A stretch of 64,000 nucleotides of DNA from Bacteroidales bacterium (GCA_036261255.1 DATALD010000012.1:17065-81064), one strand, 5' to 3'; positions 16,376 through 49,117 are shown, numbered from the stretch's first letter. The notes: generated by a model not told the origin, from the sequence alone. A program made the numbers and translations.

Positions 16376-17731
16376 TTAAAACTTCAAGGTAAATACCGAT
16401 CCCTTATCCGGAGAGGAGTTCACTGAAATTGTGCCATTGTGATTCTGCATTATTTGTTTTGACAGGCTTAATCCAATACCTGAACCATGTTCTTTTGTTG
16501 TATAGAATGGCACAAAAATATCTTCAACAATATCAGCTGATATCCCTGTCCCATTGTCTTCAACCTGGATTAATATGCTACCATTGGCACAGAATGCTTT
16601 CAGGTGAATTGTTCCTTCCTTTTTGCCGGACAAAGCTTCGACTGCATTTTTGATAAGGTTAATAAGAATCTGCTCGATCTGGGAATAGTCCGCTTCAAGT
16701 GTAAGCTCCTCAGGGTAAACACTTGCAGAAATTTTTATATTATCCGGAATGTTTGATTCCATGAGCATAATGCATTTCCGCAAAAGGCTGTCGATAATGA
16801 ATCTGCTTAAAACGGGTTTTGGCAAAGATGCTAAGCTTCTGTACTTATCAACAAATTCGAGTAATCCTTTTCCTGTTTCATTAATTGTATCTAACCCTGA
16901 AAGTGTTTTTGATATTATTCTCTGATTAACTTCTGCCGGCACTATCGTATTTTCAGTGCCTTGATTTTTATAATACCCCGATATCGCTGAACTAAGAGAA
17001 GTTATCGGGCTTATTGAATTCATTATCTCATGGGTTAACACCCGGATTATCTTTTGCCAGGAATCAAGTTCTTTTTTATCGAGTTCATTTGTAATATCAT
17101 GAAAAGATACCAGTTTAATCACATTGTTTTCAAATTTCAACTCTGCGGCTTTTATTAAAACACTCTGTAGAGCATTGTTAACAATCATTTTATGTAATAT
17201 TTCCTGTCCGGGACTAATAGTATTTATAATTCCGAAAAGATTGTCATCCTTTGTTTTTAATGATGCCATCTGTTCGGGTTGTTGAATGTTTAAATACTTT
17301 TTTGCAGCGCTATTATAAAACTTTATCGTGCAGTTAACATCAAATGATAGTAGCCCGGTATCAACATGGTCAACAACACTTTGCAGGAAACGGCTTGTTC
17401 TTTCAGTTTCAATCCTCGCATTCCGGATGATAGTATTTACTGAATTCATCCTGTCATGTAATTTGCCGAATGATTTATTAGTCTCATTAGAAAACCAGAT
17501 AGATGTATCTTGATTCTGAACCGATGAAAAGAATTTTTCAAGATCTGAATTTGTTCTGTTAACCTTATCAACAAGTAACAATGTTTGAAACACAATCAAA
17601 AATGTAATACCTGCCAATGTGTAATAGTATCCGCTCTCAAGATGCTGTAATACTATTCCTAATACTACGCAGGATAATGCTATAAAGCTTACCCTGAGAA
17701 ATACATTGATGAAGAATTTATTCAAAAGCAT
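16376..17731 (-). CDS. Sensor histidine kinase (NtrY/NtrB-like): 2 TM with minimal periplasmic loop, PAS-like domain, HisKA, HATPase
   Basis: RVLTHEIMNSISPI, QILINLIKNAVEA, VEDNGTGI, FVPFYTTK and GSGIGLSL. Confidence 0.93.
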   Translation of the reverse strand: MLLNKFFINVFLRVSFIALSCVVLGIVLQHLESGYYYTLAGITFLIVFQTLLLVDKVNRTNSDLEKFFSSVQNQDTSIWFSNETNKSFGKLHDRMNSVNTIIRNARIETERTSRFLQSVVDHVDTGLLSFDVNCTIKFYNSAAKKYLNIQQPEQMASLKTKDDNLFGIINTISPGQEILHKMIVNNALQSVLIKAAELKFENNVIKLVSFHDITNELDKKELDSWQKIIRVLTHEIMNSISPITSLSSAISGYYKNQGTENTIVPAEVNQRIISKTLSGLDTINETGKGLLEFVDKYRSLASLPKPVLSRFIIDSLLRKCIMLMESNIPDNIKISASVYPEELTLEADYSQIEQILINLIKNAVEALSGKKEGTIHLKAFCANGSILIQVEDNGTGISADIVEDIFVPFYTTKEHGSGIGLSLSKQIMQNHNGTISVNSSPDKGSVFTLKF

Positions 17732-19107
17732 GTTTTAGCTTTCAAAAGGTTATACTTTTGCATTTTATTGTACATTGTTTGCCTGGCTATACCCAGCTCC
17801 TGTGATGCTTTTAATACGCTTCCGCTATTGTTTTTCAGTGCAATCTGAAGGGCTTGTTTTTCCATTTCAGCAAATGTCTGAGGCTTTTGTTGAAGAGATT
17901 GTTGCTGTGGTGCATATGTAATAATAAAATCTTCCGGTTTTAAAATATTAGAATCACATAATATGACAGCTTTTTCTATTGTATGACATAACTCCCTCAC
18001 ATTTCCAGGCCAGTTATGCTTCATAAGTTGGTCAAGTGTTTTGCTGCTGAATTTCAGATAATATTTCTCATATTTGTTTGCATACTCCTTTAGAAAATGC
18101 TCTGCAAGCAAAATAATATCTTCTCCCCGGTTGCGCAGGGGAGGTATTTCTATCACAATTGTGTTGATGCGATAATACAGATCTTCACGGAATAGATTTT
18201 TCGAGACCATATCAGGCAGTTTTTTATTAGTTGCACAGATAAGTCTTATGTCGAAGGGTATTGGTGTTTTTGATCCGACCTTAAATATTACCCGGTTCTG
18301 AATGGCGGCAAGAAGTTTTGCCTGCATAGTAAGAGACAGGTTTGCTATTTCATCCAAAAACAGCGTTCCACCTGAGGCTGTCTCGAACCATCCGGCTTTA
18401 TCTTCTTTTGCATCTGTAAAAGCCCCTTTGACATGCCCGAATATTTCACTCTCGAATAACGTTTCGGTTATTGAGCCGATGTCAATACTGAAGAACGCTT
18501 CGTCAGCTCTTCGTGAAAGATTATGGATTTCTTTGACAATCAATCCTTTTCCTGTTCCGTTCTCGCCAACAACTAAAACATTGGCATCTGTCCTGGCAAC
18601 CTTTTTTATTACCTGCAGAATATCTTCCATAACCTTTGACTTCCCAATCAGGGGACCATCCTGCTTAGTAATTCCTTTGTTTATTTGTTTTTGCCTGTCC
18701 CGGAGTTTTTTATTTTCAATCTTTGATTGCCTCAGTCTGAATGCTGCCTGCAGAGAAGCAATAAGCCTATCATTGTCCCATGGCTTTACAACAAAATCAA
18801 CCGCTCCTTCTTTAATTGCCCTAACAGCCAGGCTAACATCAGAATATGCAGTTATCATCACCACAGCTGCCAACGGATCTGATTTTAATATCCGGTTAAG
18901 CCAGTAAATACCTTCATTACCTGTATTTACGCCAGCTGAAAAATTCATATCCAGGAGGATAACATCATATACCTCATTGCTTATACTGCTGATGATCTGG
19001 TTTGGATTTTTTATACCTGTTATTCTCTCAAATTCCGGTTCAAGGACCTGGACCAGCGTTTTTAAAACCTGTTCGTGATCGTCAACTATCAATAACCTGC
19101 CATTCAT
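17722..19107 (-). CDS. sigma54-dependent response regulator (NtrC family bEBP)
   Basis: REC domain (LLIVDD, LLDMN, VVKP); GENGTGK; ESEIFGHVKGAFTDA; LFLDEI; FREDLYYR; WPGNVREL; Fis-type HTH. Start placed at MNGRLL. Confidence 0.94.
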   Translation of the reverse strand: MNGRLLIVDDHEQVLKTLVQVLEPEFERITGIKNPNQIISSISNEVYDVILLDMNFSAGVNTGNEGIYWLNRILKSDPLAAVVMITAYSDVSLAVRAIKEGAVDFVVKPWDNDRLIASLQAAFRLRQSKIENKKLRDRQKQINKGITKQDGPLIGKSKVMEDILQVIKKVARTDANVLVVGENGTGKGLIVKEIHNLSRRADEAFFSIDIGSITETLFESEIFGHVKGAFTDAKEDKAGWFETASGGTLFLDEIANLSLTMQAKLLAAIQNRVIFKVGSKTPIPFDIRLICATNKKLPDMVSKNLFREDLYYRINTIVIEIPPLRNRGEDIILLAEHFLKEYANKYEKYYLKFSSKTLDQLMKHNWPGNVRELCHTIEKAVILCDSNILKPEDFIITYAPQQQSLQQKPQTFAEMEKQALQIALKNNSGSVLKASQELGIARQTMYNKMQKYNLLKAKTCF

Positions 19108-19118
19108 CTTTTTATTAA

Positions 19119-19157
19119 TGTCTATATATTGGACACAAAATGTCCGATATATAGACA
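19119..19157. promoter_or_regulatory. Tandem enhancer (UAS) sites, TGT-N11-ACA x2
   Basis: TGTCTATATATTGGACA (19119-19135) and TGTCCGATATATAGACA (19141-19157) are inverted copies of each other with 1 mismatch. Confidence 0.7.
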
Positions 19158-19223
19158 AATATATAATAAGATTTTGTAAGGTTGTTAACTTAATAAATTA
19201 TATTTCAAGGAAATAATAAAATC

Positions 19224-19239
19224 TGGTACGGTAATTGGC
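19224..19239 (+). promoter_or_regulatory. sigma54 promoter for the permease gene
   Basis: TGGTACG-GTAA-TTGGC, 66 bp downstream of the UAS pair. Confidence 0.65.
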
Positions 19240-19270: not shown

Positions 19271-21628
19271 ATGATTATGTTAAGGAACAACAAGACAACA
19301 GCCTTTAGGAGTATCAGAAGATATTCGACGTATTCAATTCTTAATATTATTGGGATGGCCATAGGCATGGCTTCTGCAATCTTAATTCTTTTATGGGTAC
19401 AGGATGAATGGAGCTATGACAGACACTTCAAAAATGCTGACAACCTGTACCGGGTTATTGAGAAACAATATTTTTCAGGAGGAGAAGTCTCCCAGTTTGC
19501 AATATCTCCGGGGATTTTAGCCACTGCCCTGAAAGAAGAATTTCCTGAAATCAGCAGATCAACCACGTACTCAAATCCTCAGTTTCCCATTCAAAAAGGC
19601 ATTGATTTTATTGAAGCAAAGATCGCAGTTTCAGACAAGGAGTTTATAAATATGTTTGATATAGAGTTTGTTCGTGGAGATATTAACAGCTCTATGAATG
19701 GACCTTACGATATGGTCGTTACTGAAAATCTTGCGAATAAATATTTCAATGGCGAAGACCCTCTTGGTAAGACATTGAAATCAGCAGGTTGGCTATTTAC
19801 AATCACTGGGATTGTGAAAAGTATGTCACATAATAGTCACATTGAATTTGATATTTTACTTCCTTCGGAATTAATGGAGCAAATTGGCCCTCCTGTAAAC
19901 GACTGGGATTATAGATGTTATAATTACCTGCAATTGCAAAAGGGAACTGACATTAAAGCTTTTGAAAACAAAATTGGGGATTATATTAAAAAGAATAAAG
20001 AAGGATCGAATTCTGAAATCCTCCTTCAAAACATAAAAAAGATCCATTTATTTTCTTCTCAGAAGTACGCCTATGATGTTCCCGGCCAGGGGGACATAAC
20101 TTATATCAGAGTTCTGAGTCTTGTTGCTGTGTTTATTCTGATTGTTGCCTGTATCAATTTTATGAATCTTTCTATTGCGCTTTTATCCAGGAGGTTAATG
20201 GAAATAGGTATTCGTAAAGTGAATGGAGCTGGTAAAGGCAAACTAATCGTCCGGTTTTTAGGAGAATCTTTGCTTATTGTATTGGTGGCTCATGTAGTTG
20301 CAATGATTCTGGTTGAATTGTTGCTGCCCGGATATAATAATCTTATTGGTAAGCACATAGTTGTTGATTACCGCAGTTTTGGGTTATATACAGGTTTAAT
20401 TTCTATGGTACTGTTTTGTGGCTTGCTTGCAGGAAGTTATCCTTCATTTTATTTGGCTTCTCTAAAGCCAATTGATATAATGAAAGGAATTTTTGGCACG
20501 AATCCAGGCAAGGCGAAATTCAGAAGCGCCCTTGTTGTATTCCAGTTTTCATTATCGGTACTGTTAATTATCTGTACTTTAACTGTCGCAAAACAGTTGC
20601 AATATTTGAAAAATAAGGACCTGGGATATAGTAAAGAAGATATTGGTTATTTTTTGTTTGATACGAACCCAAGGGATCCCCGTTTGGAAACTTTTAAGAA
20701 GGAGATCAGCAATAATCCTGATGTATTGAGCGTAACAAGAGCACGTTATAATCCTGTTAATGTTGAAGGTACCTGGTCGGGTCTTAAATGGACAGGAAAA
20801 AAGGAAGGTGATGATGTTATGTTTTATGTACTTGGGGCTGATGAAGATTATGCAAAAACATTTCAACTTGAACTCAGTGAGGGTCGCTTCTTTTCGAGGG
20901 AGTTTTCAACCGATAATACTGCATTAGTGATTAACGAAGAAGCAGCAAAAATAATGAGTCTTAAGAATCCAGTTGGTGAAATATTATCTACCAGTGAAGG
21001 AGCAAAATTTACAATTATTGGAGTGGTAAAAGATTTTAACTTCAAATCACTACATACCGGAATTGAACCTCTAATCATCACTTTGGAGTCATGTAATACT
21101 TTCTACATCAAGATGAAGCCCGATAAAACAACTTCAACTTTAGAATTTGTAAATAAGACATACAATTCATATAAAAATCATAACCCGTTGTATTTCCATT
21201 TTCTTGATAATGATTTTGCAAACCAGTACAAGTCTGAACAAAGAACAGGTAAAATACTGAGTATTTTCTCATTTTTAGCAATACTGATTTCTTGTCTGGG
21301 TCTTATTGGTTTATCATCATTTATGACAGAATGCCGGACAAAAGAGATAGGAATCAGGAAAATCAACGGAGCAACGGCAGGTGAAATATTCTCACGTTTT
21401 TCAGCAGAATACATGATATGGATAATTATTGCAGTAATTATTGCCTGCCCGATTGCATGGTATGTCATGAATAAGTGGTTGCATACTTTTGCTTTCCGGA
21501 TCGAAATGAGTTGGTTGGTATTTGCTCTTGCAGGTGTCTTAGCTCTGATTATTGCATTACTGACAGTCAGTTTCCAGGCGTTTAGAGCCGCAAGCAAAAA
21601 TCCTGTCGAAGCTCTCAGGTATGAATAG
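19271..21628 (+). CDS. Two-module MacB/FtsX-type ABC transporter permease (~790 aa)
   Basis: YSILNIIGMAIG, IACINFMNL-like VACINFMNL, EIGIRKVNGA, KEIGIRKINGA and C-terminal NPVEALRYE. Start 19271 or 19277; the TTG at 19235 lies inside the promoter. Confidence 0.93.
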   Translation: MIMLRNNKTTAFRSIRRYSTYSILNIIGMAIGMASAILILLWVQDEWSYDRHFKNADNLYRVIEKQYFSGGEVSQFAISPGILATALKEEFPEISRSTTYSNPQFPIQKGIDFIEAKIAVSDKEFINMFDIEFVRGDINSSMNGPYDMVVTENLANKYFNGEDPLGKTLKSAGWLFTITGIVKSMSHNSHIEFDILLPSELMEQIGPPVNDWDYRCYNYLQLQKGTDIKAFENKIGDYIKKNKEGSNSEILLQNIKKIHLFSSQKYAYDVPGQGDITYIRVLSLVAVFILIVACINFMNLSIALLSRRLMEIGIRKVNGAGKGKLIVRFLGESLLIVLVAHVVAMILVELLLPGYNNLIGKHIVVDYRSFGLYTGLISMVLFCGLLAGSYPSFYLASLKPIDIMKGIFGTNPGKAKFRSALVVFQFSLSVLLIICTLTVAKQLQYLKNKDLGYSKEDIGYFLFDTNPRDPRLETFKKEISNNPDVLSVTRARYNPVNVEGTWSGLKWTGKKEGDDVMFYVLGADEDYAKTFQLELSEGRFFSREFSTDNTALVINEEAAKIMSLKNPVGEILSTSEGAKFTIIGVVKDFNFKSLHTGIEPLIITLESCNTFYIKMKPDKTTSTLEFVNKTYNSYKNHNPLYFHFLDNDFANQYKSEQRTGKILSIFSFLAILISCLGLIGLSSFMTECRTKEIGIRKINGATAGEIFSRFSAEYMIWIIIAVIIACPIAWYVMNKWLHTFAFRIEMSWLVFALAGVLALIIALLTVSFQAFRAASKNPVEALRYE

Positions 21629-21999: not shown

Positions 22000-23311
22000 C
22001 ATTAGTGTCCACTAAAAATTAAATATCGTTCTTTGAAATCTTGAATACATCGAGGTTGTAGAGCTTTTTTGTTACGTGTCGATTTGAAATGAAAATATGG
22101 TTTTTAGCTTTAAAGAAAGGCAAAAACCATGAATCAAGGCAAATATGTATACTCTCAGCTTACAGATTTTCTACCCAAACGTGTTTTCGATTGTATCGTT
22201 GATAAATATGATGGGAATAAGCATGTTAGGTTCTTTACTTGTTGGAATCAACTCTGCAGTATGATTTTTGGTCAATTAGCAGGACGAGAGAGTATGCGTG
22301 ATCTGATGATTGGTCTTGAAGCACACAAATCCAAGTTTTATCATCTGGGATTTGGAAAAAATGTGACCAGATCTAATCTTTCGAAAGCTAATGAAAAGCG
22401 CAATTACAGAATATTTGAAGAGTTTGCATATCACCTGATTGACGAAGCCAGAAGGGTTACTGTAATAAAAGATTTTAATCTTAATATCAAATCAAATGTG
22501 TATGCCTTCGATTCATCTACTATTGATTTATGCCTGAGCGTTTTCTGGTGGGCTGAGTTCCGCAAAACAAAAGGCGGAGTTAAACTACATACTCTGTTTG
22601 ATGTAAAAACCTCAATCCCAAGTTGTATCCTCATAACCAAAGCCTCAGTACATGATATGAATGCTCTGGATTTGCTCTCGTATGAGCCAGGTGGCTATTA
22701 TATACTTGATCGTGGGTATACTGATTATGAAAGGCTTTACAGGATTACCCGGCATTCAGCATATTTTGTAACAAGAACCAAGAAAAACATCAGGTTTAAA
22801 CGTATGTATTCCAACAGTTTGGATAAGAATAAAGGAGTCCTTTCAGATCAGATTGGAAAACTTGAAGGCTTTTACTCATTACAATACTACCCGGATAAAC
22901 TCCGGAAAATCAAGTATTATGATGAAGAAACAGACAGAATCTTCGAGTTTATGACTAATAACTTTGATCTTAAGGCTCATGAGATTGCCCTACTCTACAA
23001 GTACCGTTGGAAAGTAGAATTGTTCTTCAAATGGATCAAACAGTATCTTAGAATAAAATCATTCTGGGGTACAACTCCCAATGCTGTAAAGATCCAAATC
23101 TACTCTGCTATCATCGTATATTGTCTGGTAGCAATAATTGCAAACAAACTGAAAGTGGACCGCACACCTTACGAAATACTACAAATTTTAAGCATATCGC
23201 TTTTTGATAAAACACCTATAAAAGAGCTACTTACGAACCAAGATTACCAAGAAGTCAAAGAACTAAATTGTATACAGTTGAAAATCAATTATATTTAAGT
23301 GGACACTAATG
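22000..23311 (+). mobile_element. IS4-family insertion sequence, 1312 bp, intact
   Basis: 14-bp perfect terminal IR CATTAGTGTCCACT (22000-22013 / 23298-23311). 9-bp target duplication ATTCATTTT at 21991-21999 and 23312-23320. Confidence 0.93.
22129..23298 (+). CDS. IS4 family DDE transposase (DUF4372 + DDE_Tnp_1)
   Basis: AFDSSTIDL (D), GVKLHTLFD, YYILDRGY (D), and YKYRWKVELFFKWIKQ (Y-2-R-3-E-6-K signature). Confidence 0.95.
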   Translation: MNQGKYVYSQLTDFLPKRVFDCIVDKYDGNKHVRFFTCWNQLCSMIFGQLAGRESMRDLMIGLEAHKSKFYHLGFGKNVTRSNLSKANEKRNYRIFEEFAYHLIDEARRVTVIKDFNLNIKSNVYAFDSSTIDLCLSVFWWAEFRKTKGGVKLHTLFDVKTSIPSCILITKASVHDMNALDLLSYEPGGYYILDRGYTDYERLYRITRHSAYFVTRTKKNIRFKRMYSNSLDKNKGVLSDQIGKLEGFYSLQYYPDKLRKIKYYDEETDRIFEFMTNNFDLKAHEIALLYKYRWKVELFFKWIKQYLRIKSFWGTTPNAVKIQIYSAIIVYCLVAIIANKLKVDRTPYEILQILSISLFDKTPIKELLTNQDYQEVKELNCIQLKINYI

Positions 23312-33070: not shown

Positions 33071-33118
33071 AAAAAATGTACGTATTCGTACACAGATGCC
33101 CGTTAACGTACATTTTTT
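33071..33118. promoter_or_regulatory. Tandem enhancer (UAS) sites, TGT/TGC-N10-ACA x2
   Basis: TGTACGTATTCGTACA (33077-33092) and TGCCCGTTAACGTACA (33097-33112), flanked by A6/T6. Confidence 0.68.
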
Positions 33119-33168: not shown

Positions 33169-33184
33169 TGGCATGCCAATTGAC
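33169..33184 (+). promoter_or_regulatory. sigma54 promoter of the exporter operon
   Basis: TGGCATG-CCAA-TTGAC. Confidence 0.65.
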
Positions 33185-37145: not shown

Positions 37146-37158
37146 ATATTTTCAAAGA

Positions 37159-38316: not shown

Positions 38317-38351
38317 ACAATGAAATTAAAAAAGTTATAACCATAAGTAAA

Positions 38352-39506
38352 ATGATTTTAAACTACCTGAAAACATTATTCCTATCCATAAAGCGGCAAA
38401 AAGGCATTATGTTCCTGAATTTTACTGTGCTGGTAGTTTCGATGATAATTCTGACAATTATTATAAGCGCTTTCAATGAAATGATCTTCACTCCTCATTA
38501 TGAGACTAATGGCGAAAAGCTGTACTTTCTTGAGAACCCTGAGAACAGATCTCCCCGTGATTTTTCAATTAATGAAGAACAACAATTGTTAAAGGTTGAT
38601 GCCCCTGTGAACTGGTGTCTGTTGTCATCCTCTGTGTTCTCATTTCATCCTTCCAAAAAAGGTGTTCTGAAGGATTTTGAGGGACATTATGCCAATGAAA
38701 ACTATCTGAAAATTCTTGATCTCGATTTTATAAGAGGTGAACGATATTCACAAAAACAAATAGAAAATGGACAAAGGGTTATCCTTATCAGTGAAACCGT
38801 TGCTGAATTCATCTTTGAATCAACCGATGTTATCGGAAGAGAAGTCGTAGTATTCAATATGCCGTATAAGGTAGTTGGAGTATTCAAAAACATGTCGCGG
38901 ATAGCCGGTACAACAGCAGTAGCTTTTTTGCCTGCAGAGTTCAATACATGGGATAGAATGAATTGGAATATTGCAGTTACAAACGATGAATTGGACAAAG
39001 ACATCCTGGAAAAAACATTCAACAAACATGCTTCTGAAATTTTTGGTAATGTGGATGGGAGAATAAAACTATTATCAAGAGGCAATCTTGTCCTGAACGA
39101 AATGGGACGATTGCAAATGGGAATTTTTGTAATACTACTCGCCATGGCTCTTCCCGCTTTGTTAATGGTGAATCTTATTATTACACGGATGGAGACAAAG
39201 CTAAACGAGATGGGTATTCGAAAAGCTTTTGGGGCCGACAGGAAAGCTATCTTCTGGCACCTGATCTATGAGAACATAATCTTTACACTAATTGGAGGTA
39301 TAGCTGCCTTACTCATCGGCCAGTTTGTCGTTTCTAACCTGCTGTATGAAGAAGAAAAGTTTACTCTTGTCAGTATGATGAATATACCAGTGTCTACACA
39401 TCTGGTAGTAATGCTGGGTTATATAATCTTTGGATTTATTTCGGGATGGTACCCTTCGAGACTGATTGCAAAAAAGAGTATTGTTACGTCAATTAACAAC
39501 ATCTGA
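38352..39506 (+). CDS. MacB/FtsX-type ABC permease, single module (class A2)
   Basis: ALPALLMVNL; EMGIRKAFGAD; C-terminal SIVTSINNI. Confidence 0.88.
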   Translation: MILNYLKTLFLSIKRQKGIMFLNFTVLVVSMIILTIIISAFNEMIFTPHYETNGEKLYFLENPENRSPRDFSINEEQQLLKVDAPVNWCLLSSSVFSFHPSKKGVLKDFEGHYANENYLKILDLDFIRGERYSQKQIENGQRVILISETVAEFIFESTDVIGREVVVFNMPYKVVGVFKNMSRIAGTTAVAFLPAEFNTWDRMNWNIAVTNDELDKDILEKTFNKHASEIFGNVDGRIKLLSRGNLVLNEMGRLQMGIFVILLAMALPALLMVNLIITRMETKLNEMGIRKAFGADRKAIFWHLIYENIIFTLIGGIAALLIGQFVVSNLLYEEEKFTLVSMMNIPVSTHLVVMLGYIIFGFISGWYPSRLIAKKSIVTSINNI

Positions 39507-39507
39507 A

Positions 39508-40704
39508 ATGAGACTGATCATTTACAAAATACTTCAGCACAAAAGGCGCTATATTTTTCTTCTGATATCACTTGTAGTCATACAGTCGCTCGTTTTTCTG
39601 TCGATGACTTTTATTCAGCATGAAAAGATGAGGCTATTCCCTGAAACAGTGTTCAATATTGAAGATTGTTATAATCTGGAAGTACTATATCCTGGTGATA
39701 AAGCAGATAGTATTGGTTTTAGCACATTTAAGTTCGACGAAGAAAGCCTGGATGTTATCAGGTCAATTGAACATGTAAAACATGCAACTGGTAAATCACC
39801 TTATGTCAGGAAACAAGTGTATGAATCAATGCTCTTTTCTTCGGGAAAAACCGGGAACATTTTTTATACCGAGACTGGCAATGGATTTGAAAAGATACTT
39901 GGTCTGAAATTATTGAAAGGGTCTTTATTCTCACAATCTGAATCAGAGATCAATGAGGCCATAATTACAAAATCACTTGCTGACAGTCTTGGCATTTTTA
40001 ACAAAGAGCTGCCACAGACAATAACTTTAAAGGGAACAAGCAAGAATAATAATGAGGAGATAACATGCTCCATCACAGGGATTGTTGAGGACATTTTTTA
40101 TAAATATTCAGGCAAGAACGTTTGTCCGATTTTTTGCAGGAGAGATACTCAGAAAAATATCGAATTCAGTGGTAGTGTTCTTTTAAAGCTTGATGACAAT
40201 GCCGATATCGATGCAATGGAACTTGAAATTGGTACTTTAATTCAATCATTTACCAAAACGAAGCCTGTTGTTCAACTCATTTCGCTTGATATGGTTGTTA
40301 ATGAACTATGGAATGAACAGAAACGCATGTTTTTAATAATGCTTTCAATCATCCCACTGGTTCTTTTTTATTCTTTCTTCGCTATTTTCGGACTCTTCTG
40401 GAGCGAGATGTCGCATGATAAAGTAAAATATGGGATATTGCGTTCCATCGGCTTTAACCGCTTACAGGTTTTCCTGCTTGGTCTTAAAGAAGCTGTGTTG
40501 TTTTCACTGCTAAGCTTCTTGTTTTCTGGCACCCTTGTTCTTAATATAATCACAATATTCCCTGGCTCACATAGTACGCAGATCATTCTGTCAAATTTGA
40601 CAATATCATTTATAATAATTTTCGTGCTTGTTGTATTGGCCGCCTGTATCCCGGCTTTGAAATTTTCACGGATTAACCCTGTTGAAGCCCTTGCTAACGA
40701 ATAA
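39508..40704 (+). CDS. MacB/FtsX-type ABC permease, single module (class B2)
   Basis: IFGLFW; YGILRSIGF; C-terminal NPVEALANE. Start at MRLII. Confidence 0.87.
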   Translation: MRLIIYKILQHKRRYIFLLISLVVIQSLVFLSMTFIQHEKMRLFPETVFNIEDCYNLEVLYPGDKADSIGFSTFKFDEESLDVIRSIEHVKHATGKSPYVRKQVYESMLFSSGKTGNIFYTETGNGFEKILGLKLLKGSLFSQSESEINEAIITKSLADSLGIFNKELPQTITLKGTSKNNNEEITCSITGIVEDIFYKYSGKNVCPIFCRRDTQKNIEFSGSVLLKLDDNADIDAMELEIGTLIQSFTKTKPVVQLISLDMVVNELWNEQKRMFLIMLSIIPLVLFYSFFAIFGLFWSEMSHDKVKYGILRSIGFNRLQVFLLGLKEAVLFSLLSFLFSGTLVLNIITIFPGSHSTQIILSNLTISFIIIFVLVVLAACIPALKFSRINPVEALANE

Positions 40705-40737: not shown

Positions 40738-41415
40738 ATGAACAACGTAATCACTCTTGAAAACATCACAAAGATCTACTCAACAAAAGAGATCGAAACA
40801 ACTGCATTAAGTAATGTGAACCTTGAAATTAAGAAAGGTGAATTTGTATCGGTAATGGGGCCATCGGGTTGTGGTAAAAGTACAATGCTCAATATCATCG
40901 GGCTTCTTGATGCGCCAACAGAAGGTAGCGTAAAGATTGATGATAGTCCGACCGAGGGTCTTAAAGACAAAGCCCTGTCGCAATTAAGAAACGAAAAAAT
41001 AGGTTTCATATTCCAGAGTTTTCACCTTGTTAATGACCTGCCTGTTATTGATAACGTGGAGTTACCGCTCCTGTACCGGAAAGGAGTATGGGCAGGTGAA
41101 CGCCGCAAAAGAGCCAAGGCATCGCTTGAAAAAGTGGGATTAAGCGCCCGCAGCAAGCATTATCCCAACCAGCTATCAGGTGGACAACGCCAGAGGGTGG
41201 CAATAGCACGCGCAATAATCGGCCAGCCGGATATAATCCTTGCCGATGAACCGACAGGGAACCTCGACAGCAAAATGGGAGCGGAGATAATGGAAATCCT
41301 TCACAGGCTGAACAAGGAAGAGGGAACAACAATCGTCATGGTTACTCATGATGAGCGCCTGGCACAGCAAACTGACCGTATTATCCGCCTGTTCGACGGG
41401 GCAAGGGTGAATTAA
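40738..41415 (+). CDS. ABC transporter ATP-binding protein (LolD/MacB NBD-like)
   Basis: [41 protein letters not shown] and VTHD. Confidence 0.96.
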
Positions 41416-41458: not shown

Positions 41459-42679
41459 ATGATAAAAAATTACCTTAAAGCAGCCATTTATTCAATGTTT
41501 CGCAGGAAATGGTTCTCCCTGCTAACTCTCTTCTCAATCTCCATATCACTGGTTATGGTAACATGCGGGGCATCAATGTGGAACATGATTACCGCTCCGA
41601 TAGCCCCTGAAGTAAACAAGGGACGGACTTTTTTTTTGAATGCTCGGCTGGATTCGAAAAGTGGCGACCGCCAGTTTTCTGATATCTCTCTTATTATGGA
41701 AATTACAAGCGGATTTTTAATTCAGGATGTTTATCGGTTCAAGACTCCTGAACTAACTACCATTTATGAAAAACACGGTGGTTATACCGAGTTTATCCGA
41801 AATAATAAAACAAAAAAAGCTCAGATGATACGGACCGACGCCAATTTTTTTAAGGTTTTTGAATTTGACTTTATTACCGGTAAACCATATTTACAAACCA
41901 ATTCAACGGAAAAAGCTAATACCTTATGTGTCATTTCAAAAGAGCTGGCAGATTACTTTTTCGGTGGTCCAGATTGTCTTGGGCAGGTTATAAATGACCT
42001 AACACATCAATTCAAAGTGGTGGGGGTTGTAACAAAACCGACTTCCCAAACTTCTTTAAAATCAGATATCTATTACCTCGCAAAACCGGATGAAATCAAC
42101 AGGGGAGGATTGTATCAGCATAATGTAGCTTTTCTATGTCACTCAAAACAAGATAAACAAACGCTAGATGCTGAATTGAATAAATACACATTCAACAGCG
42201 ATAAGGGACAAGTTACAATGAGTTCTGATTCACCTGCAATCCAGTACCTCACTGAAAAAATTGACTTTGAAGAAGGAAGCTTGCGTGCATATATTGCTCT
42301 TGGCCTGATTGCATTGATCATTCCCGCCCTGTGTCTGGTTGATATCCTGAAGAATAACCTGAGTCACCGCAACGAGGAACTTGCTATCAGAAGAGCTTTT
42401 GGGGCCCCGCGAAAAAGTATAACCTCATTACTTTTAATTGATAACCTTCTACTGACATTAACCGGAGGGATACTTGGGTTAGGATTTTCATTTCTGTTCT
42501 ATGCCGTATTAAGTGATGATACATGGACAAACCTGTTTTTTGTGTTTTTCAACTGGAGGGCATTTTTCTATTATATAGCTGTATTTCTGATTATCGGAGG
42601 TATCGCCGGTGTTTTGCCTTCTTACAGGATTTCGAAGCAACAGATTGTGAACGCCTTATATGCAATTGAAAATGATTAA
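41459..42679 (+). CDS. MacB/FtsX-type ABC permease, single module (class A3)
   Basis: TDANFFKVFEFDFITGKPY; IIPALCLVDI; ELAIRRAFGAP; QIVNAL. Confidence 0.88.
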   Translation: MIKNYLKAAIYSMFRRKWFSLLTLFSISISLVMVTCGASMWNMITAPIAPEVNKGRTFFLNARLDSKSGDRQFSDISLIMEITSGFLIQDVYRFKTPELTTIYEKHGGYTEFIRNNKTKKAQMIRTDANFFKVFEFDFITGKPYLQTNSTEKANTLCVISKELADYFFGGPDCLGQVINDLTHQFKVVGVVTKPTSQTSLKSDIYYLAKPDEINRGGLYQHNVAFLCHSKQDKQTLDAELNKYTFNSDKGQVTMSSDSPAIQYLTEKIDFEEGSLRAYIALGLIALIIPALCLVDILKNNLSHRNEELAIRRAFGAPRKSITSLLLIDNLLLTLTGGILGLGFSFLFYAVLSDDTWTNLFFVFFNWRAFFYYIAVFLIIGGIAGVLPSYRISKQQIVNALYAIEND

Positions 42680-43880
42680 GCACTTGTATAAACAAATTCT
42701 AAAGAAACGAAGACGTTATTATATATCTGCGATCGTCCTCTTTCTTTCCTTCTTTGCATTTATTGTAATGGTAGGATATATTTATCCCGACATTATAAGG
42801 TCATCTTCATTCAGGCTGCCGGTACCTATAGATAACAGGGTTGAGCTTGTTATTGAATGGAAAACAAAAGAAAAAGAGATTCAAAAGAGCTTAAAAGCCG
42901 GTTTGAAAGAAGGGATTTTAAAACTTAATGGAGTTCAGGCAGCTGATTTTATTATAAATGACCTGGGATCAATACATACAATGCATTCATATGATTTTTC
43001 CCCTGGCAATTCTTACTTCATTTTTTGTGGTGAAAATTTCAGTGAGGTTTTCGATTTGAAATTAGAGCAGGGCAAATGGTTTTCAGAGACAGAAAATATC
43101 TCCGACCTAACTCCTGTTGTAATTACCCGAAATCATGCCGATTACCTTGGAATACAGAATGTCACGTCCAATTCCGTATTTGCCAGTGTAAATCCCAACA
43201 GCCGTAATAATGATAGTATCAGGTACCAGATAACAGGCATTATCGAAAATATGGAAAATATACGAAAAATAGGATCCCGGTCTGAACTTGGGAAAAATAC
43301 TTTTCCGGTATTCTCACCCGAGCCGTTTTATGAGAATACTTTTAATTACGATGAAAGGCTGATCCTGAAAATGAACGATGGGTATAATTTCGAATTATTG
43401 AATACACAGGTTTTGAATTTAATGGAGAAAATGAATGCCAGGGATTATATCCATCAACATAGACTTACTTCATTAAATGATGTTCTAAAGACACAGATTA
43501 ATGAGCATTTTACTGGGTTGCGAATGATATATGCTATTCTACTGATTCTACTGACATACATCTTCGTTGTCCTATTTGGCAATTTCTGGAAGATGACCCA
43601 AAAGCGGACCATTGAGATTGGGATCCGCAGGGCATTAGGCCATTCACGAGGAAAGGTTTTGTTTTACATTCTGGCAGAATCGCTATTGTTTTTTATATCA
43701 ATAATGATTCCTGCTTCATTTGCTTATCTCAATCTTTATAAAATTATTAATATCTCATCTCCTCTGCCAATTTACCTGATCAGCATCGGGATTCTTTTTC
43801 TGGTTGTCATGATAGCAACAATAATTCCTGCAATTTATGCCGGCCGTGTTAATCCTGTTCAGGCTCTTGCCGATGAATGA
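42672..43880 (+). CDS. MacB/FtsX-type ABC permease, single module (class B3)
   Basis: LFGNFW; EIGIRRALGH; C-terminal NPVQALADE. Confidence 0.88.
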   Translation: MIKHLYKQILKKRRRYYISAIVLFLSFFAFIVMVGYIYPDIIRSSSFRLPVPIDNRVELVIEWKTKEKEIQKSLKAGLKEGILKLNGVQAADFIINDLGSIHTMHSYDFSPGNSYFIFCGENFSEVFDLKLEQGKWFSETENISDLTPVVITRNHADYLGIQNVTSNSVFASVNPNSRNNDSIRYQITGIIENMENIRKIGSRSELGKNTFPVFSPEPFYENTFNYDERLILKMNDGYNFELLNTQVLNLMEKMNARDYIHQHRLTSLNDVLKTQINEHFTGLRMIYAILLILLTYIFVVLFGNFWKMTQKRTIEIGIRRALGHSRGKVLFYILAESLLFFISIMIPASFAYLNLYKIINISSPLPIYLISIGILFLVVMIATIIPAIYAGRVNPVQALADE

Positions 43881-43929: not shown

Positions 43930-46368
43930 ATGTTCCGAAATATTCTTCTATCCGCTATTGCAAGCCTTAAACGAAAAAAAACCGCTTCGTTGTTTACGAT
44001 ACTCACAATAAGCCTTGGCATGACAATGATTGTGCTGATGTCATCACTTTATCATTCATATACCGGTAACCTTGGACCATATATTAACCGCGACAGGTGC
44101 CTGTACCTTAGCGATCTTAAGTTTGAAAAAAACGGTCAGGCAGCCGAAAGAATTGGCAATGACAGCAAAAATTCAACAACTGATTTTATAAGAAAGACAC
44201 TCTATGATCTTGATTCAACAGCAATTGTTGGAATGTACGGCCGCGTACATGAGGAGGATTTCGGACCCAGGTACAATCCCTTCAAAATAAAGTATATAGA
44301 AACAGATGTCAATTTCTGGAGAATCCATCATTTTGATTTCCTTGACGGAAAAGCTTTTTCTGCCGAAGATGTAGATAATAAAGAAAAGGTGGCAATCATT
44401 TCAAGGAAGATGGCTGTTCAACTTTTGGGAGATGTACAGGTAGCAGGAAAACTTTTCGATTATGGAGATCAAGGAAAGTTCAGGATAGCCGGAATTATTG
44501 AAGATGTAAATCCACACTTTGAGGTAAGCGCTGACCTTTATCTGCCATATACAATAACTTCGTGGGATGAGAATAATTCTACATCGTTCGATGGCATAGA
44601 TTATTACTATAACAGGGGCGCATATAAAGGCATATTAATGGCTCAGAATAAATCTAATTTTAAATCAATAAGGAACAAGTTTGGTATTACTATTGGTAAA
44701 TTGAATAAAACCGGACAGGTTGAGGAATTCGATAGAGTAAATGCTAAATTAAGAACCCCTTCTAATCAAATTCCTTCGATGATCGGACTGAAAAATGATG
44801 AAACAGGAGCTATTATTTTCATTTCAATGGGAGTCATATTCCTTCTGCTCCCAATAATAATTCTTTCAAACATCAATCTTTACTCATTACGCGACAGGCT
44901 TGAAGAAATTGGTATTAGAAAATCATTTGGAGCCAGACGCCAGCATATTATACGCCAGTTTTTTGTCGAGAATGTTATGGTAACTGCTGTCGGTTGCATT
45001 TTAGCGCTTTTCTTAGGTTATTTTTTAAACCGAATACTGGCTTTCATTCTCTATCGCACAACCGAGATCCCCGGATTTGAATTTAACATATCCCTGTTTT
45101 CCTACCTCTTTCTTGGAACAATTGTATTCGGGATATTAACAGTTGTTATCCCTGTTATTCGCATTTCGAAGGTTCAACCTGTATTGGCCATCAATCACAA
45201 TATTTTCTCAGGGGAAACAAGAATGAAGTTTAAGACCCGGAATAAGGGACTTAAGGTAACTACATCTATTCTGCTTTCGCTGGTTTTATTTATGTGCAGT
45301 TTAATTATGATGATATTTAGTGATTACATATCAGGACTTGGTTATGAAACAAAGAATATTATTAAAATCATAGTGGAAGACAATGATCAGAAAGTATACG
45401 ACGATAATTATAACACCACCCGTTTTGATGGATTCCGTGAGGGTCTTCTGCGAATAGAGGGGGTTGAGAAAGTTTCGAATGTTCTTGAAAATCCACCATT
45501 CTGGATTATTCCGCAATACCAGGATTTTATTGTTAACTCAGAAGAAAAACAAATCAGAACCCTCGAAACCGACAGTGTGTTTTTTGATTTGCTGGAAATC
45601 AAGCCTGTAAAAGGGGTATTATACAGATCAGGCATAATCGAGGGAAATTATTTGCCGGCTATTGCAACTCTGGCAGGAGAAAAGGAATTCTTTGATGGAG
45701 ATGCTGTTGGTAAAACATTTAAACGAAAAAGCGATGGTCAGAACATTAAAATTGTAGGGGTAATTGAAAAATATAAGCATCATTCCTCCGCTTCTCCTTT
45801 GACAGGAATAATGGTTTGCCGTAACCGACCGTCGCGCTCTGTACTAATAAAGTTCAATCCCAATACCAATCTGAATAATTTACGAAACAAAATCAGCGAC
45901 CTTACAAAAAACTGGAAAGGAGGCAATATGCTTCTCTCTGAAAATGATAATATTGACACTGAAAAACAACAGGCACTTAAGTTGAACTATTCTGCCTACT
46001 ATGGAGCTTTGCTTGCTATTTCGTTTCTCTTCCTAAATGCATTTATGGGTTACTTTACACTCACTTACTACAATGTGCTAACCCGGAAAAAAGAGATGGG
46101 GATCCGCAGAGCTTCAGGGGCAAACAGACAACAAATAATCTGGAAAATACTTGCCGAGAACCTTTCAGTAATGCTCATTGGCTCTCTTGTTGCAGTTGCT
46201 ATTATCTGGCAAATATTTCATCTCATCAATTTTAATAAATGGGATATCTTCTGGTCAGGGTACAAGTTGTCTTTGGCTATCGGCCTTGTAATAACTCTGG
46301 GAAGCGCCCTTGTACCTGCAATAAAGGGCTCAATTGTTCAACCTGTTGAGGCCCTGGCAGAAGAATGA
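43930..46368 (+). CDS. Fused two-module MacB/FtsX-type permease (class A4 + class B4)
   Basis: First half: LLPIIILSNI, EIGIRKSFGAR. Second half: EMGIRRASGAN, QPVEALAEE. Confidence 0.88.
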   Translation: MFRNILLSAIASLKRKKTASLFTILTISLGMTMIVLMSSLYHSYTGNLGPYINRDRCLYLSDLKFEKNGQAAERIGNDSKNSTTDFIRKTLYDLDSTAIVGMYGRVHEEDFGPRYNPFKIKYIETDVNFWRIHHFDFLDGKAFSAEDVDNKEKVAIISRKMAVQLLGDVQVAGKLFDYGDQGKFRIAGIIEDVNPHFEVSADLYLPYTITSWDENNSTSFDGIDYYYNRGAYKGILMAQNKSNFKSIRNKFGITIGKLNKTGQVEEFDRVNAKLRTPSNQIPSMIGLKNDETGAIIFISMGVIFLLLPIIILSNINLYSLRDRLEEIGIRKSFGARRQHIIRQFFVENVMVTAVGCILALFLGYFLNRILAFILYRTTEIPGFEFNISLFSYLFLGTIVFGILTVVIPVIRISKVQPVLAINHNIFSGETRMKFKTRNKGLKVTTSILLSLVLFMCSLIMMIFSDYISGLGYETKNIIKIIVEDNDQKVYDDNYNTTRFDGFREGLLRIEGVEKVSNVLENPPFWIIPQYQDFIVNSEEKQIRTLETDSVFFDLLEIKPVKGVLYRSGIIEGNYLPAIATLAGEKEFFDGDAVGKTFKRKSDGQNIKIVGVIEKYKHHSSASPLTGIMVCRNRPSRSVLIKFNPNTNLNNLRNKISDLTKNWKGGNMLLSENDNIDTEKQQALKLNYSAYYGALLAISFLFLNAFMGYFTLTYYNVLTRKKEMGIRRASGANRQQIIWKILAENLSVMLIGSLVAVAIIWQIFHLINFNKWDIFWSGYKLSLAIGLVITLGSALVPAIKGSIVQPVEALAEE

Positions 46369-46457
46369 TGCGTTCTGGTTTTGAAATGAAAGGATGTCGT
46401 AAAACTATTAAATTTGAATACCTTTAATGATGTACAAAATTCTGGCAAAAGCATACA

Positions 46458-47819
46458 ATGATACTCATAATAGATGACGATATTGCCATCCAGGCTTCGC
46501 TGCAATTGCTTCTGAAAGAAAACGGTTACAGGGTTTCAGTGGCAGGCAGGCAGGGTGAAGCTCTAAGTTTGCTGAGATCAGAGAAGATATCTCTTATCCT
46601 TATGGATATGAACCTGTCATCAGAGACTACAGGCCGCGATGGACTTGAGCTGCTCACAGATGTAAAGGAATTCTGGCCACAATTACCTGTGATACTTATC
46701 ACAGGCTGGGGATCGATTGACCTTGCTGTTGAAGGAATGAGGAGGGGAGCATTCGATTTTATTACAAAACCATGGGACAACAACCGGTTATTGCAGGCCA
46801 TGAAAAACGCCCTTACACTTCAGAGCCATGAACGGGGAAATCATCAAACAAGGGAGAACCTCGACAAGCAATATAACTTCAATTCAATAACAGGGCAACA
46901 TCCATCTGTTATTACAGTACTCGAAACAATCGCAAGAATAGCTCCTACGACGGCCCCTGTGATGATTACCGGTGAGAGCGGAACAGGAAAAGAAGTTATT
47001 GCACAGGCTATTCACCTTAACAGTAACCGCAGCAATGGACCATTTATACCGGTAAATCTGGGAGCTATTCCACATTCCCTTTTCGAGAGCGAAATGTTCG
47101 GCTACAAACGCGGGGCTTTTACAGATGCTAAAACTGATAAGCCGGGTAAGTTCGAACATGCAAATGGGGGAACTCTTTTTCTAGATGAAATAGGTGAACT
47201 GGATCTGAATTCACAGGTAAAACTGCTCAGGGCTTTGCAGGAAAATAAAATTGAAAGGATAGGAGATACCGGGAGTACGACTGTTGATGTGCGTATTGTA
47301 TGTGCAACAAACAGGAAAATACATGAAATGGTTGAAAACGGTACTTTTCGAGAGGATCTTTATTACCGCATTAACCTGATAAATATTGAATTACCACCTC
47401 TGCGCGAAAGGGCCTCCGACATACCTTTACTCACCGGCTTTTTTCTTGATATTTTCAGAAAACAATATGACAAACCGGCTCTCTCAGTTACAAATGAAGG
47501 TATAAAATACCTGTCGGAATTGATTTTCCCGGGAAACATCAGGGAATTGAAAAATGTACTGGAGCGGGCAGCGCTAATTTCTTCAACTGGTATTTTAGGA
47601 AAAGAGGATTTCATTTCATCCGCAGGTCATACAAACAAAGCCAATCCCGCTGTTAGCCTGCCCGAACCTGGCAGCATGACTATTGAAGAAATGGAAGAAA
47701 CAATGGTGCGAAAAGCGCTTGAGAAATTTAACAACAACATCTCTAAAGCTTCAAAGAGCCTTGGCTTAACCCGGCAGATGCTATACAGGCGAATTGAAAA
47801 GTACAACATAAAACTCTGA
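46458..47819 (+). CDS. sigma54-dependent response regulator (NtrC family bEBP)
   Basis: LIIDDD, LMDMN, GESGTGKE, ESEMFGYKRGAFTDA, LFLDEIGE, FREDLYYR, FPGNIREL and a Fis-type HTH. Confidence 0.95.
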   Translation: MILIIDDDIAIQASLQLLLKENGYRVSVAGRQGEALSLLRSEKISLILMDMNLSSETTGRDGLELLTDVKEFWPQLPVILITGWGSIDLAVEGMRRGAFDFITKPWDNNRLLQAMKNALTLQSHERGNHQTRENLDKQYNFNSITGQHPSVITVLETIARIAPTTAPVMITGESGTGKEVIAQAIHLNSNRSNGPFIPVNLGAIPHSLFESEMFGYKRGAFTDAKTDKPGKFEHANGGTLFLDEIGELDLNSQVKLLRALQENKIERIGDTGSTTVDVRIVCATNRKIHEMVENGTFREDLYYRINLINIELPPLRERASDIPLLTGFFLDIFRKQYDKPALSVTNEGIKYLSELIFPGNIRELKNVLERAALISSTGILGKEDFISSAGHTNKANPAVSLPEPGSMTIEEMEETMVRKALEKFNNNISKASKSLGLTRQMLYRRIEKYNIKL

Positions 47820-47821
47820 TT

Positions 47822-49117
47822 ATGCGGTTCAGGACGAAGCTACTATTATACATCATTGGTCTTAACCTTTTGCTGGTCTGCTTGTCTGCACATTTCCTCA
47901 ATACCAACATAAAGCTGTTCATGGCTCTTGAGGTTGTAATAGTGACTGCAATTATTACCGGACTCATTCTCTTCCGCCAGTATTCCGGAACTATGGACCT
48001 GATAGCTTCAGGAATCGAAAGCCTTAAAGACCAGGACTTCAGTATCAGGCTGAAACCTGTTAAAAACCGTGAGTTTAATGCATTTATAAGTGTTTACAAT
48101 AAGATGCTGGATCAGCTAAGAAAAGAACGTATAGCATTTTCAGAGAAAAGTTATTTGATCAATAAGTTGATGGATGCATCACCAACGGGGATACTGATCT
48201 TCGACTTTGATGATCATCTTAGCAGCCTTAATCCCGCTGCTGCCAGGTTTTTCGGGTTTATTGAAAAAGATATAAAAAACTTAAGTTTTAAAGATTTATC
48301 GCTTAAACTCGGCGGTATGCTGGATAAATGTTCAACATCGAACAATTATATTTTCTATAAAAACGGGAGTGAAGCTTACAGGATACAGAATGGTTTTTTT
48401 GTCGATCGCGGATTTGATACACGATTCATCCTGGTAGATGAGCTTACACATGAGATTTATAAAATGGAGAAGCAAGCTTATGGCAAGGTAATCCGGATGA
48501 TGAGTCATGAAATAAATAACTCTATTGGCGCTGTTAATTCCGTATTGCAGACAATCCGGCCCAGATTGGAACAATATGAAGGTTATGCCAAGACAGTCGA
48601 TGCCTGTATAATCCGGAATGAAAATATGAACCGTTTTATGAGCAACCTGGCTGATGTTGTTCGCATACCTGAACCAAAACGAAAAGCAGTTGATCTGAAC
48701 ATTCTTGCGGGAAATACTCTTCTATTGTTCCGCGAACAACACAATTGCCATCCGATCAGTTTCTCCTCTAGTCTTGATATACAACCTGTGATTGTCAACG
48801 TTGATGACTCGCAGATAGAGCAGGTTTTAATGAATGTCCTAAAGAATGCCTGCGAAGCTATTGAGAATGAAGGGACGGTTGAAATTATAACAAAGTCACG
48901 ACCAGCAAAACTCATTGTTCGTAACAACGGCAGAAGAATTGAGGATACTCAACGGGAGAAGCTATTTACACCATTCTATACAACTAAATCGCATGGTCAG
49001 GGAATTGGATTGACACTTACACGTGAGATCCTTTTAAACCATGGTTGCCGGTTTGAGCTCAAAACAAATCCTGTTAATCAATTAACTGAATTTTCTATTA
49101 TTTTCCAGGTTGTATAG
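47822..49117 (+). CDS. Sensor histidine kinase: 2 TM with minimal loop, HAMP/PAS-like domain, HisKA, HATPase
   Basis: MMSHEINNS, QVLMNVLKNACEA, FTPFYTTK and GQGIGLTL. Confidence 0.93.
   Translation: MRFRTKLLLYIIGLNLLLVCLSAHFLNTNIKLFMALEVVIVTAIITGLILFRQYSGTMDLIASGIESLKDQDFSIRLKPVKNREFNAFISVYNKMLDQLRKERIAFSEKSYLINKLMDASPTGILIFDFDDHLSSLNPAAARFFGFIEKDIKNLSFKDLSLKLGGMLDKCSTSNNYIFYKNGSEAYRIQNGFFVDRGFDTRFILVDELTHEIYKMEKQAYGKVIRMMSHEINNSIGAVNSVLQTIRPRLEQYEGYAKTVDACIIRNENMNRFMSNLADVVRIPEPKRKAVDLNILAGNTLLLFREQHNCHPISFSSSLDIQPVIVNVDDSQIEQVLMNVLKNACEAIENEGTVEIITKSRPAKLIVRNNGRRIEDTQREKLFTPFYTTKSHGQGIGLTLTREILLNHGCRFELKTNPVNQLTEFSIIFQVV

Follow-up and report, generated by a model that had tools for sequence, protein, structure and literature searches.

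What two histidine kinases that carry no periplasmic sensor may respond to, and which genes they control, is the question raised by a region within a 64,000-nt stretch of the genome of a Bacteroidales bacterium (GCA_036261255.1, DATALD010000012.1:17065-81064; the whole stretch is called the window below, and positions are counted from its first nucleotide). In the initial annotation of the window, both kinases were described as intramembrane sensors linked to FtsX-family permeases, and the region was likened to the BceRS-BceAB modules of Bacillota, with an NtrC-type activator and a TolC exit duct. Our analysis showed that the span 16376-49117 comprises two modules, set apart by about 11.5 kb of sequence with unrelated genes (for an IS4 transposase, LigD, a glyoxalase, and a hydrolase). 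The modules are probably independent copies of one cassette, old and conserved, in which, as read from the sequence, a sigma-54 two-component system controls a MacB-type (type VII ATP-binding cassette, ABC) envelope pump. This rating covers the wiring and is separate from the route by which the signal arrives, for which we rank coupling to the pump first, direct perception by the membrane hairpin second, and a ligand of the PAS domain third. Cassettes that combine a sigma-54 two-component system with a type VII ABC pump are widespread; no experimental study of any of them was found in the literature, where direct mention was limited to one in-silico survey (PMC12316311).

In module 1, the genes of the kinase HK1 and the regulator RR1 are located on the minus strand, and the gene of a 785-aa permease is divergent from them, with no adjoining ATPase, adaptor, or TolC gene:

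16376-17731, minus strand: HK1, histidine kinase of 451 aa with a two-helix transmembrane (TM) hairpin, HAMP-like linker, PAS, DHp (His234), and CA
17722-19107, minus strand: RR1, NtrC-type sigma-54 activator with REC, AAA+ (GAFTDA loop), and HTH_8
19119-19135 and 19141-19157: two copies of a TGTC-N9-GACA inverted repeat at 22 bp spacing, candidate RR1 enhancer sites
19224-19239, plus strand: sigma-54-like -24/-12 element TGGTACGGTAATTGGC, about 32 nt 5' of the permease ATG
19271-21628, plus strand: duplicated MacB_PCD/FtsX permease, ADOP/DarB-like, 785 aa, 8 TM helices, two periplasmic domains

The likely start of RR1 is the ATG at 19107, which gives a typical N-terminus MNGRLLIVDDHE; a TTG at 19158 was disfavoured. 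Module 2 is a co-directional cluster that encodes an adaptor, a TolC-like protein, seven FtsX permeases, and one ATPase, followed by RR2 and HK2:

33077-33092: inverted repeat TGTACGTATTCGTACA, candidate RR2 enhancer site
33169-33184, plus strand: sigma-54-like -24/-12 element TGGCATGCCAATTGAC, 27 nt 5' of the adaptor ATG
33211-34476, plus strand: periplasmic adaptor, HlyD/MacA-like, with one N-terminal TM helix
34473-35978, plus strand: TolC-family outer membrane factor (OEP)
36009-40704, plus strand: four single-module FtsX/MacB_PCD permeases (378, 385, 384, and 412 aa; 4 TM helices each), additional to the canonical operon
40738-41415, plus strand: MacB/LolD/DarD-type ABC ATPase, the sole ATPase of the module 2 cluster
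41459-43880, plus strand: two single-module FtsX permeases of 406 aa each, in the slot of the canonical permease pair after the ATPase
43930-46368, plus strand: duplicated FtsX permease with 8 TM helices, 812 aa, additional to the canonical operon
46458-47819, plus strand: RR2, NtrC-type sigma-54 activator with REC, AAA+ (GAFTDA loop), and HTH_8
47822-49117, plus strand: HK2, histidine kinase of 431 aa with a two-helix TM hairpin, HAMP-like linker, PAS, DHp (His229), and CA

Module 2 has all four parts of a tripartite pump (permease, ABC ATPase, HlyD-type adaptor, and TolC-family duct). The exit duct that had been attributed to the system was thus found, together with its adaptor, in module 2, but not in module 1, which has a permease alone.

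The layout of both modules recurs in other genomes. A scan with HK1, limited to one genome per species, yielded at least 582 relatives, and 80 loci were kept for analysis; these included Bacteroidales, Marinilabiliales, Flavobacteriales, Ignavibacteria, Latescibacterota, Acidobacteriota, Gemmatimonadota, Calditrichota, KSB1, and Opitutales, with cultivated strains of Aquimarina, Flagellimonas, and Gaoshiqia among the sources. Relatives of HK2 were rarer, being detected in 11 of 301 genomes of the phylum at E 1e-40 or better, and were plentiful in metagenomes (at least 551 matches). The sigma-54 regulator preceded the kinase in all 76 HK1-type loci that had upstream sequence, and a divergent pump operon was present in 44 of the 52 loci with at least 6 kb upstream, the canonical order being permease(~800)-permease(~800)-ATPase-adaptor-(TolC) facing regulator-kinase. 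The other eight pairs (~15%) had no nearby pump gene, and their neighbours included a DEAD helicase, an FG-GAP protein, and HsdM. HK2-type loci had the order permease-permease-regulator-kinase on one strand wherever upstream sequence was available, and the full form was adaptor-(TolC)-ATPase-permease(~415)-permease(~394)-regulator-kinase; module 2 corresponds to this operon after expansion by four permeases upstream of the ATPase and a single duplicated one upstream of the regulator. The linkage to FtsX-family permeases that the initial annotation had noted in the window was therefore confirmed well beyond it. The same layouts were found in more than 100 loci of several phyla, and the link between kinase and FtsX/MacB permease was conserved across many genomes together with -24/-12 sites and inverted repeats. 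A search of open reading frames (ORFs) of at least 80 aa around the 80 HK1-type loci revealed no conserved accessory gene, PhoU-like or LiaF-like, the best candidate being present in 6 of 80.

The lone permease of module 1 also proved to be a recurrent arrangement. The closest HK1 relatives (loci L002-L006, 55-69% identity) had exactly the layout of the window, with one permease of ~785 aa and no ATPase or adaptor gene within 10 kb. An IS4-type transposase gene (DDE_Tnp_1 and DUF4372 domains) is located at 22129-23298, 500 bp downstream of the module 1 permease, and loss of an ATPase or adaptor through truncation by this insertion sequence (IS) was considered. It was rejected, because the lone-permease layout is identical in L002-L006, which have no IS element; module 1 is thus native and unbroken.

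The organism's own genome, a 3.4-Mb assembly, contained four or five further modules on contigs C66, C80, C32, C54, and perhaps C78. At C66:4976-30578, about ten duplicated (~800 aa) FtsX permeases and a single ATPase are divergent from an HK1-type regulator-kinase pair; one permease of this array is apparently split into ORFs of 611 and 203 aa. At C80:13774-23443, genes of a TolC-like protein, an adaptor, and an ATPase face those of a sigma-54 regulator and two duplicated permeases, with no adjoining kinase. The C80 regulator retains the receiver Asp motif and therefore must rely on a kinase encoded elsewhere. In two loci from Mariniphaga metagenome-assembled genomes (L011 and L024), the regulator-kinase pairs are 82-83% identical and the duplicated permeases 24%, which reflects either a fast turnover of permeases next to a stable switch or an orthologous permease beyond the 10-kb flank.

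Both regulators consist of REC, Sigma54_activat, and HTH_8 domains and belong to the NtrC family, in accordance with the pairing first proposed, and the genome encodes RpoN (contig C28). Their loop motif is a variant, GAFTDA in place of GAFTGA, which keeps the Phe and Thr. This variant was present in all six pump-linked regulators of the genome (window, C54, C66, C80, and C32), while its four other sigma-54 activators had GAFTGA, GSFTGA, or GSFTSA. Elsewhere, GAFTDA was found in 62 of 72 HK1-type regulators (69 of 72 with Asp at that position) and in 7 of 8 HK2-type regulators. Since this signature is common to both cassette types, it suggests that the HK1-type and HK2-type cassettes share one pump-linked ancestor.

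A strict scan of the window for the sigma-54 consensus TGGCAC-N5-TTGCW with up to two mismatches gave 34 matches against 29 expected, and it missed both candidate promoters because their -12 elements are degenerate. It was replaced by a weighted -24/-12 score that was compared with size-matched control windows. A score of at least 12.5 was reached by 52% of 54 HK1-type intergenic regions versus 6.9% of the control windows, and the sites clustered ~40-55 nt 5' of the first pump gene. The -24/-12 element of module 1 recurs in relatives, for example in L006 as TGGTACGGGAATTGGA, and the two TGTC-N9-GACA repeats of 19119-19157 are conserved in L002-L006. At the position equivalent to that in module 2, TGGCAY-N5-TTGN was present in 8 of 8 HK2-type genome loci, and TGTNCG-N4-CGNACA-like repeats related to TGTACGTATTCGTACA were located upstream of other HK2-type operons. 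In L004, the 5' leader of the permease contains a tandem heptamer repeat (TGCAAGA / TGCAAGAC, ~8 copies), which is inserted between the -24/-12 site and the start of the gene, ~60 nt beyond the promoter.

According to the proposed wiring, each kinase would phosphorylate its NtrC-type regulator, which would bind the inverted repeats ~70-100 bp upstream of the -24/-12 promoter and, once bound, activate RpoN-RNA polymerase. The output would be the lone duplicated permease in module 1 and the whole adaptor-TolC-permeases-ATPase-permeases operon in module 2. Because the latter ends in RR2 and HK2, the circuit of module 2 would feed back positively on itself. Several points weigh against this scheme. 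The -12 elements are degenerate (TTGGC and TTGAC versus TTGC), and the promoter and enhancer assignments are motif-based candidates. The gene of the 812-aa permease is separated from RR2 by 89 nt, which leaves space for a separate promoter; a terminator scan gave no signal above chance. Finally, ATPase, adaptor, and TolC genes are all lacking near module 1, and the permease of this module therefore may not act as a pump.

The analysis of the kinases themselves limited the routes by which a signal can enter. Kyte-Doolittle hydropathy gave exactly two N-terminal helices per kinase and no later ones (residues 10-28 and 36-57 in HK1, 7-25 and 32-50 in HK2), with an outside loop of about 7-9 residues in HK1 and 6 residues in HK2. 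AlphaFold2 models built from family alignments placed the helices at 3-29 and 36-72 with the loop at 30-35 in HK1 (mean pLDDT 79) and at 3-26 and 30-69 in HK2 (mean pLDDT 72). Both models have a hairpin with a turn of 3-6 residues, and the second TM helix runs into a two-helix HAMP-like unit followed by PAS, DHp, and CA. No periplasmic domain was detected in HK1 or HK2 either by hydropathy or in the AlphaFold2 models. The short loop recurred in every aligned relative, with 5-9 residues in 67 of 67 members of the HK1 family and, in the HK2 family, 6 residues in 81 of 83 members and 7 in the other 2. It is thus a family trait and not a chance feature, and the topology given in the initial annotation, two N-terminal helices with a short loop and no periplasmic sensing domain, was borne out. 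Seemingly longer kinases (~465-520 aa), which could have had extra N-terminal domains, were also encountered; all of them were artefacts of the assigned ORF start, and nearly all overlapped the 3' end of the regulator gene.

On the cytoplasmic side, the statement that the kinases have no sensing domain did not hold, since both contain a conserved HAMP-PAS unit. A PAS fold was modelled at residues 126-212 of HK1 and 123-208 of HK2; the Pfam match to PAS_8 was clear in HK2 (E 6e-6) and weak in HK1. The catalytic core was recognized by HATPase_c (E 3e-25 in HK1 and 2e-14 in HK2) and by the H-boxes HEIMN at residue 234 of HK1 and HEINN at residue 229 of HK2. The top Foldseek matches of HK1 were the HAMP-PAS kinases WalK (a model) and VicK, the PAS (LOV) kinase YF1, and the cytoplasmic domain of ZraS, and its best NCBIfam matches were AtoS, PnpS, and ZraS, every one under its cutoff. 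HK1 and HK2 are enzymes of the AtoS/ZraS class, composed of a TM hairpin, a HAMP-like linker, and PAS, DHp, and CA domains. They are not bare BceS-type kinases, because the HAMP-like linker and PAS precede the catalytic core. Strict intramembrane-sensing kinases, as reportedly defined by Mascher in 2006, are small proteins with two TM helices, a linker of less than 25 aa, and no cytoplasmic input domain; HK1 and HK2 agree with that definition in the short loop and depart from it in the presence of PAS and the length of 431-451 aa. As neither kinase has a periplasmic domain, the stimulus must come via the membrane interior or the cytoplasm.

The hairpin and loop were the least conserved part of the kinase, with a mean column identity of 0.23-0.43 versus 0.49-0.58 in the HK1 family and of 0.37-0.51 versus 0.53-0.64 elsewhere in the kinase in the HK2 family. 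The values of PAS (0.49 and 0.53, respectively) were near those of the catalytic domains. Individual positions of the hairpin were strongly conserved: in the HK2 family, Glu37 within the second TM helix (82 of 83 members), Ser43 (90%), and His15 in the first TM helix (77%); in the HK1 family, Arg13 at the start of the first TM helix (at least 90% of members). The HK2 of the window keeps Glu37 and is off consensus at three of the four signature positions, with Asn15 in place of His, Ala43 in place of Ser, and Thr57 in place of the HAMP Pro. Its neighbour permease, P406a, likewise differs at many positions that are conserved among canonical first permeases, and the function of the expanded module 2 operon may have diverged.

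Comparison with known systems showed that neither module is a Bce module. Like BceRS-BceAB, they combine a kinase that has a HAMP-like linker and only a very short loop between its two TM helices with a neighbouring, presumably induced transporter of the FtsX family, type VII ABC (PMC10314905, PMC11009047). However, the regulator is an NtrC-type sigma-54 activator, whereas that of Bce systems belongs to the OmpR family, and PAS is inserted between the linker and DHp, whereas the Bce kinase has the order TM-HAMP-DHp-CA. The permeases are of the MacB/ADOP type, with 4 TM helices and one MacB_PCD or 8 TM helices and two, unlike BceB, a single chain of 10 TM helices in which TM7 and TM8 flank the one large extracellular domain. 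The present systems also include an adaptor and a TolC duct and come from diderm hosts in several phyla. Furthermore, Bce signalling requires the transporter and ATP hydrolysis, a dependence that is hypothetical in the present cassette. The Bce-type likeness was thus not upheld as a module class, in view of the regulator class, the permease architecture, and the additional PAS; the short loop is the sole defining feature in common.

For pump-coupled sensing, the closest architectural analogue is PhoR-PhoB with PstSCAB-PhoU of E. coli and Salmonella, in which the kinase has a membrane anchor, no periplasmic sensor, and a cytoplasmic PAS-DHp-CA part (PMC5775613, PMC9239213). The signal of PhoR originates from the PstSCAB ABC transporter via PhoU (PMC5775613; PMC9239213). 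In view of this precedent, transporter-coupled sensing is not new for Gram-negative bacteria. The two systems differ in that PhoR works with PhoU and an importer and has an OmpR-type partner, PhoB, while the cassette has a type VII exporter or extruder. No pst or phoU gene was found among the window genes or among ORFs of at least 80 aa around the 80 HK1-type loci, and the two kinases scored 92 and 55 bits against the PhoR equivalog TIGR02966, the cutoff of which is 334.

The pump itself is similar to MacAB-TolC, with an adaptor, a TolC-like duct, a MacB_PCD/FtsX permease, and a LolD/MacB-type ATPase, and the darobactin exporter DarBCD is a named type VII ABC relative of the module 2 pump. Unlike in MacAB-TolC and DarBCD, the permeases are duplicated (ADOP-like) or present as multiple paralogues (seven in module 2), regulation is of the sigma-54 type, and module 1 has a permease only; in contrast to E. 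coli MacB, in which ATPase and permease are fused, the ATPase here is a polypeptide of its own. The kinase core and the regulators find their best NCBIfam and structural matches in AtoS-AtoC and ZraS-ZraR, sigma-54 two-component systems of the NtrB/NtrC class, with which the regulators share REC-AAA+-HTH_8. The scores, however, were under the equivalog cutoffs, the loop is GAFTDA versus GAFTGA, and the targets are pump genes. AtoS and ZraS carry sizeable periplasmic domains, whereas HK1 and HK2 have none. In Stenotrophomonas, the two-component system MacRS is divergent from an operon of a MacAB-TolC-type pump, MacABCsm (PMC10295115). In a 2025 in-silico survey, sigma-54 promoters were reported before COG0577 FtsX permeases in Bacteroidia, and this was called the first such evidence (PMC12316311). 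The system had been put forward as an undescribed variant; this holds only in part, as the link between sigma-54 and FtsX was reported in that survey and coupling to a transporter has the PhoR-Pst precedent.

That the kinases lie next to the permeases by chance, with no functional link, is very improbable. An IS4 transposase does flank module 1, and 8 of the 52 HK1-type loci have no pump neighbours; however, the layouts recur across phyla and in the further modules of the same genome, the promoter and enhancer motifs are conserved, and L002-L006 keep the lone permease without an IS element. Among the functional routes, we rank highest, as possible, that the kinase perceives no stimulus of its own and, in a complex with the permease, ATPase, or adaptor, reports the transport or mechanotransmission cycle in a Bce-like or PhoR/Pst-like manner. 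Such coupling is consistent with the lack of an extracytoplasmic domain in either kinase family, with the pump parts being the only conserved membrane partners in the cassette among the ORFs examined, and with the position of HK2-type kinases, which are always within the pump operon. The TM hairpin also evolves fastest of all kinase parts. A mirror-tree comparison first used the permease encoded closest to the ATPase; as paralogy pervades the permease tree, these positions are non-orthologous, and the comparison was rerun with the distances of the best-matching permease. With the regulator controlled, the hairpin co-varied weakly with the best-matching neighbour permease (partial r 0.31, permutation p ~0.003, n=39 loci), although this Mantel-type statistic is liberal for sequences of common descent and is also inflated because one of several paralogues was chosen; the cytoplasmic part of the kinase showed no such co-variation (r -0.14). 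There are also precedents for such a route, as PhoR, a PAS kinase without a periplasmic loop, signals via an ABC transporter (PMC5775613) and the TM helices of BceB are contacted by BceS (PMC10314905). On the other hand, the conserved HAMP-PAS unit is a possible input of the kinase itself. Kinases and permeases do not always travel together: those of L011 and L024 are 82% and 24% identical, respectively, whereas the permeases of L033 and of L002-L006 are 55-62% identical and the kinases 37-40%. Coupling is also difficult to reconcile with the HK1-type pairs that have no pump gene nearby, with the C80 module, which has a regulator and a pump but no adjoining kinase, and with arrays of 7-10 permeases, in which the partner is undefined. 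Moreover, the canonical permease pair has no conserved intramembrane basic residue to match the invariant Glu37.

The lack of a basic partner leads to the next route, since Glu37 may then serve in dimer packing or in the detection of a cationic or amphipathic compound. That the hairpin itself detects a membrane-active or amphipathic compound or a changed bilayer state in the outer leaflet of the inner membrane, the pump being output only, is rather unlikely and is ranked second. The near-invariant Glu37, the frequent His15 and Ser43 of the HK2 family, and the Arg13 of the HK1 family argue for it. MacB-type pumps typically handle amphipathic or peptide substrates, and DarB/DarD-like NCBIfam matches were obtained here. 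However, the remaining hairpin and loop show little conservation, an unusual finding for a site that binds a specific ligand. The HK2 of the window also lacks three of the four signature residues (N15, A43, and T57), and the polar residues are equally compatible with dimer packing. Least probable of the three routes is a cytoplasmic one, in which PAS would bind a small molecule in the cell, such as a pump substrate that has entered or a damage-reporting metabolite, and the hairpin would be an anchor. PAS is present and constrained in both families, its fold was modelled with good confidence, and the nearest solved structures, YF1, VicK, and WalK, use PAS as an input. Nevertheless, no cofactor or ligand motif was recognized in it, the Pfam match being to the generic PAS_8 only, and a sensor acting in the cytoplasm alone would need neither a strictly conserved hairpin whose loop is fixed at 6 residues (81 of 83) nor an invariant intramembrane Glu.

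Returning to coupling to the pump, we tentatively propose a specific form of it, which we consider more doubtful than coupling as such and more probable than direct perception by the hairpin. The HAMP-PAS kinases might dock on the MacB-type pump, with the hairpin on a helix of the permease or adaptor or with PAS on the ATPase, and read the mechanotransmission cycle. The cassette might then represent a sigma-54-wired counterpart of Bce flux sensing that evolved independently in diderms of the FCB group and neighbouring phyla. If the kinases dock in this way, a multi-permease array such as module 2 would have several interchangeable permease pairs under the watch of one kinase.

The MacB/FtsX (type VII ABC) permeases, and in particular the duplicated "orphan" ADOP proteins, are among the commonest uncharacterised membrane proteins of Bacteroidota, Acidobacteriota, and related phyla. 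Through the cassette, these proteins are assigned a defined regulator and a type of promoter, as well as a role, likely inducible, in export or in the defence of the envelope. Should pump activity be what the kinases read, need-based "flux" control would be general to type VII ABC systems beyond Bacillota and would have arisen twice, with different output machinery. If the intramembrane Glu or PAS is the sensor, the family would provide a simple new model of how pump substrates are detected within the membrane or in the cytoplasm. The question of sensing becomes testable in cultivable Bacteroidota through the enhancer repeats, the -24/-12 site, the GAFTDA loop, and the residues Glu37 or Arg13.

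Two genes are located directly 3' of HK2, at 49209-52580; they encode a LytTR-domain membrane protein with 4 TM helices (285 aa) and a CarboxypepD_reg/outer-membrane beta-barrel protein (788 aa). LytTR matches followed the kinase in 2 of ~45 HK2-type loci (L107 and L177), and both genes were therefore placed outside the conserved cassette. The base composition of the stretch is ~38% G+C, and its closest kin among the matches listed were uncultured Bacteroidales. Between the modules, the minus strand at 26444-29128 encodes a full-length LigD of 894 aa with three domains (phosphoesterase, ATP-dependent ligase, and primase-polymerase).

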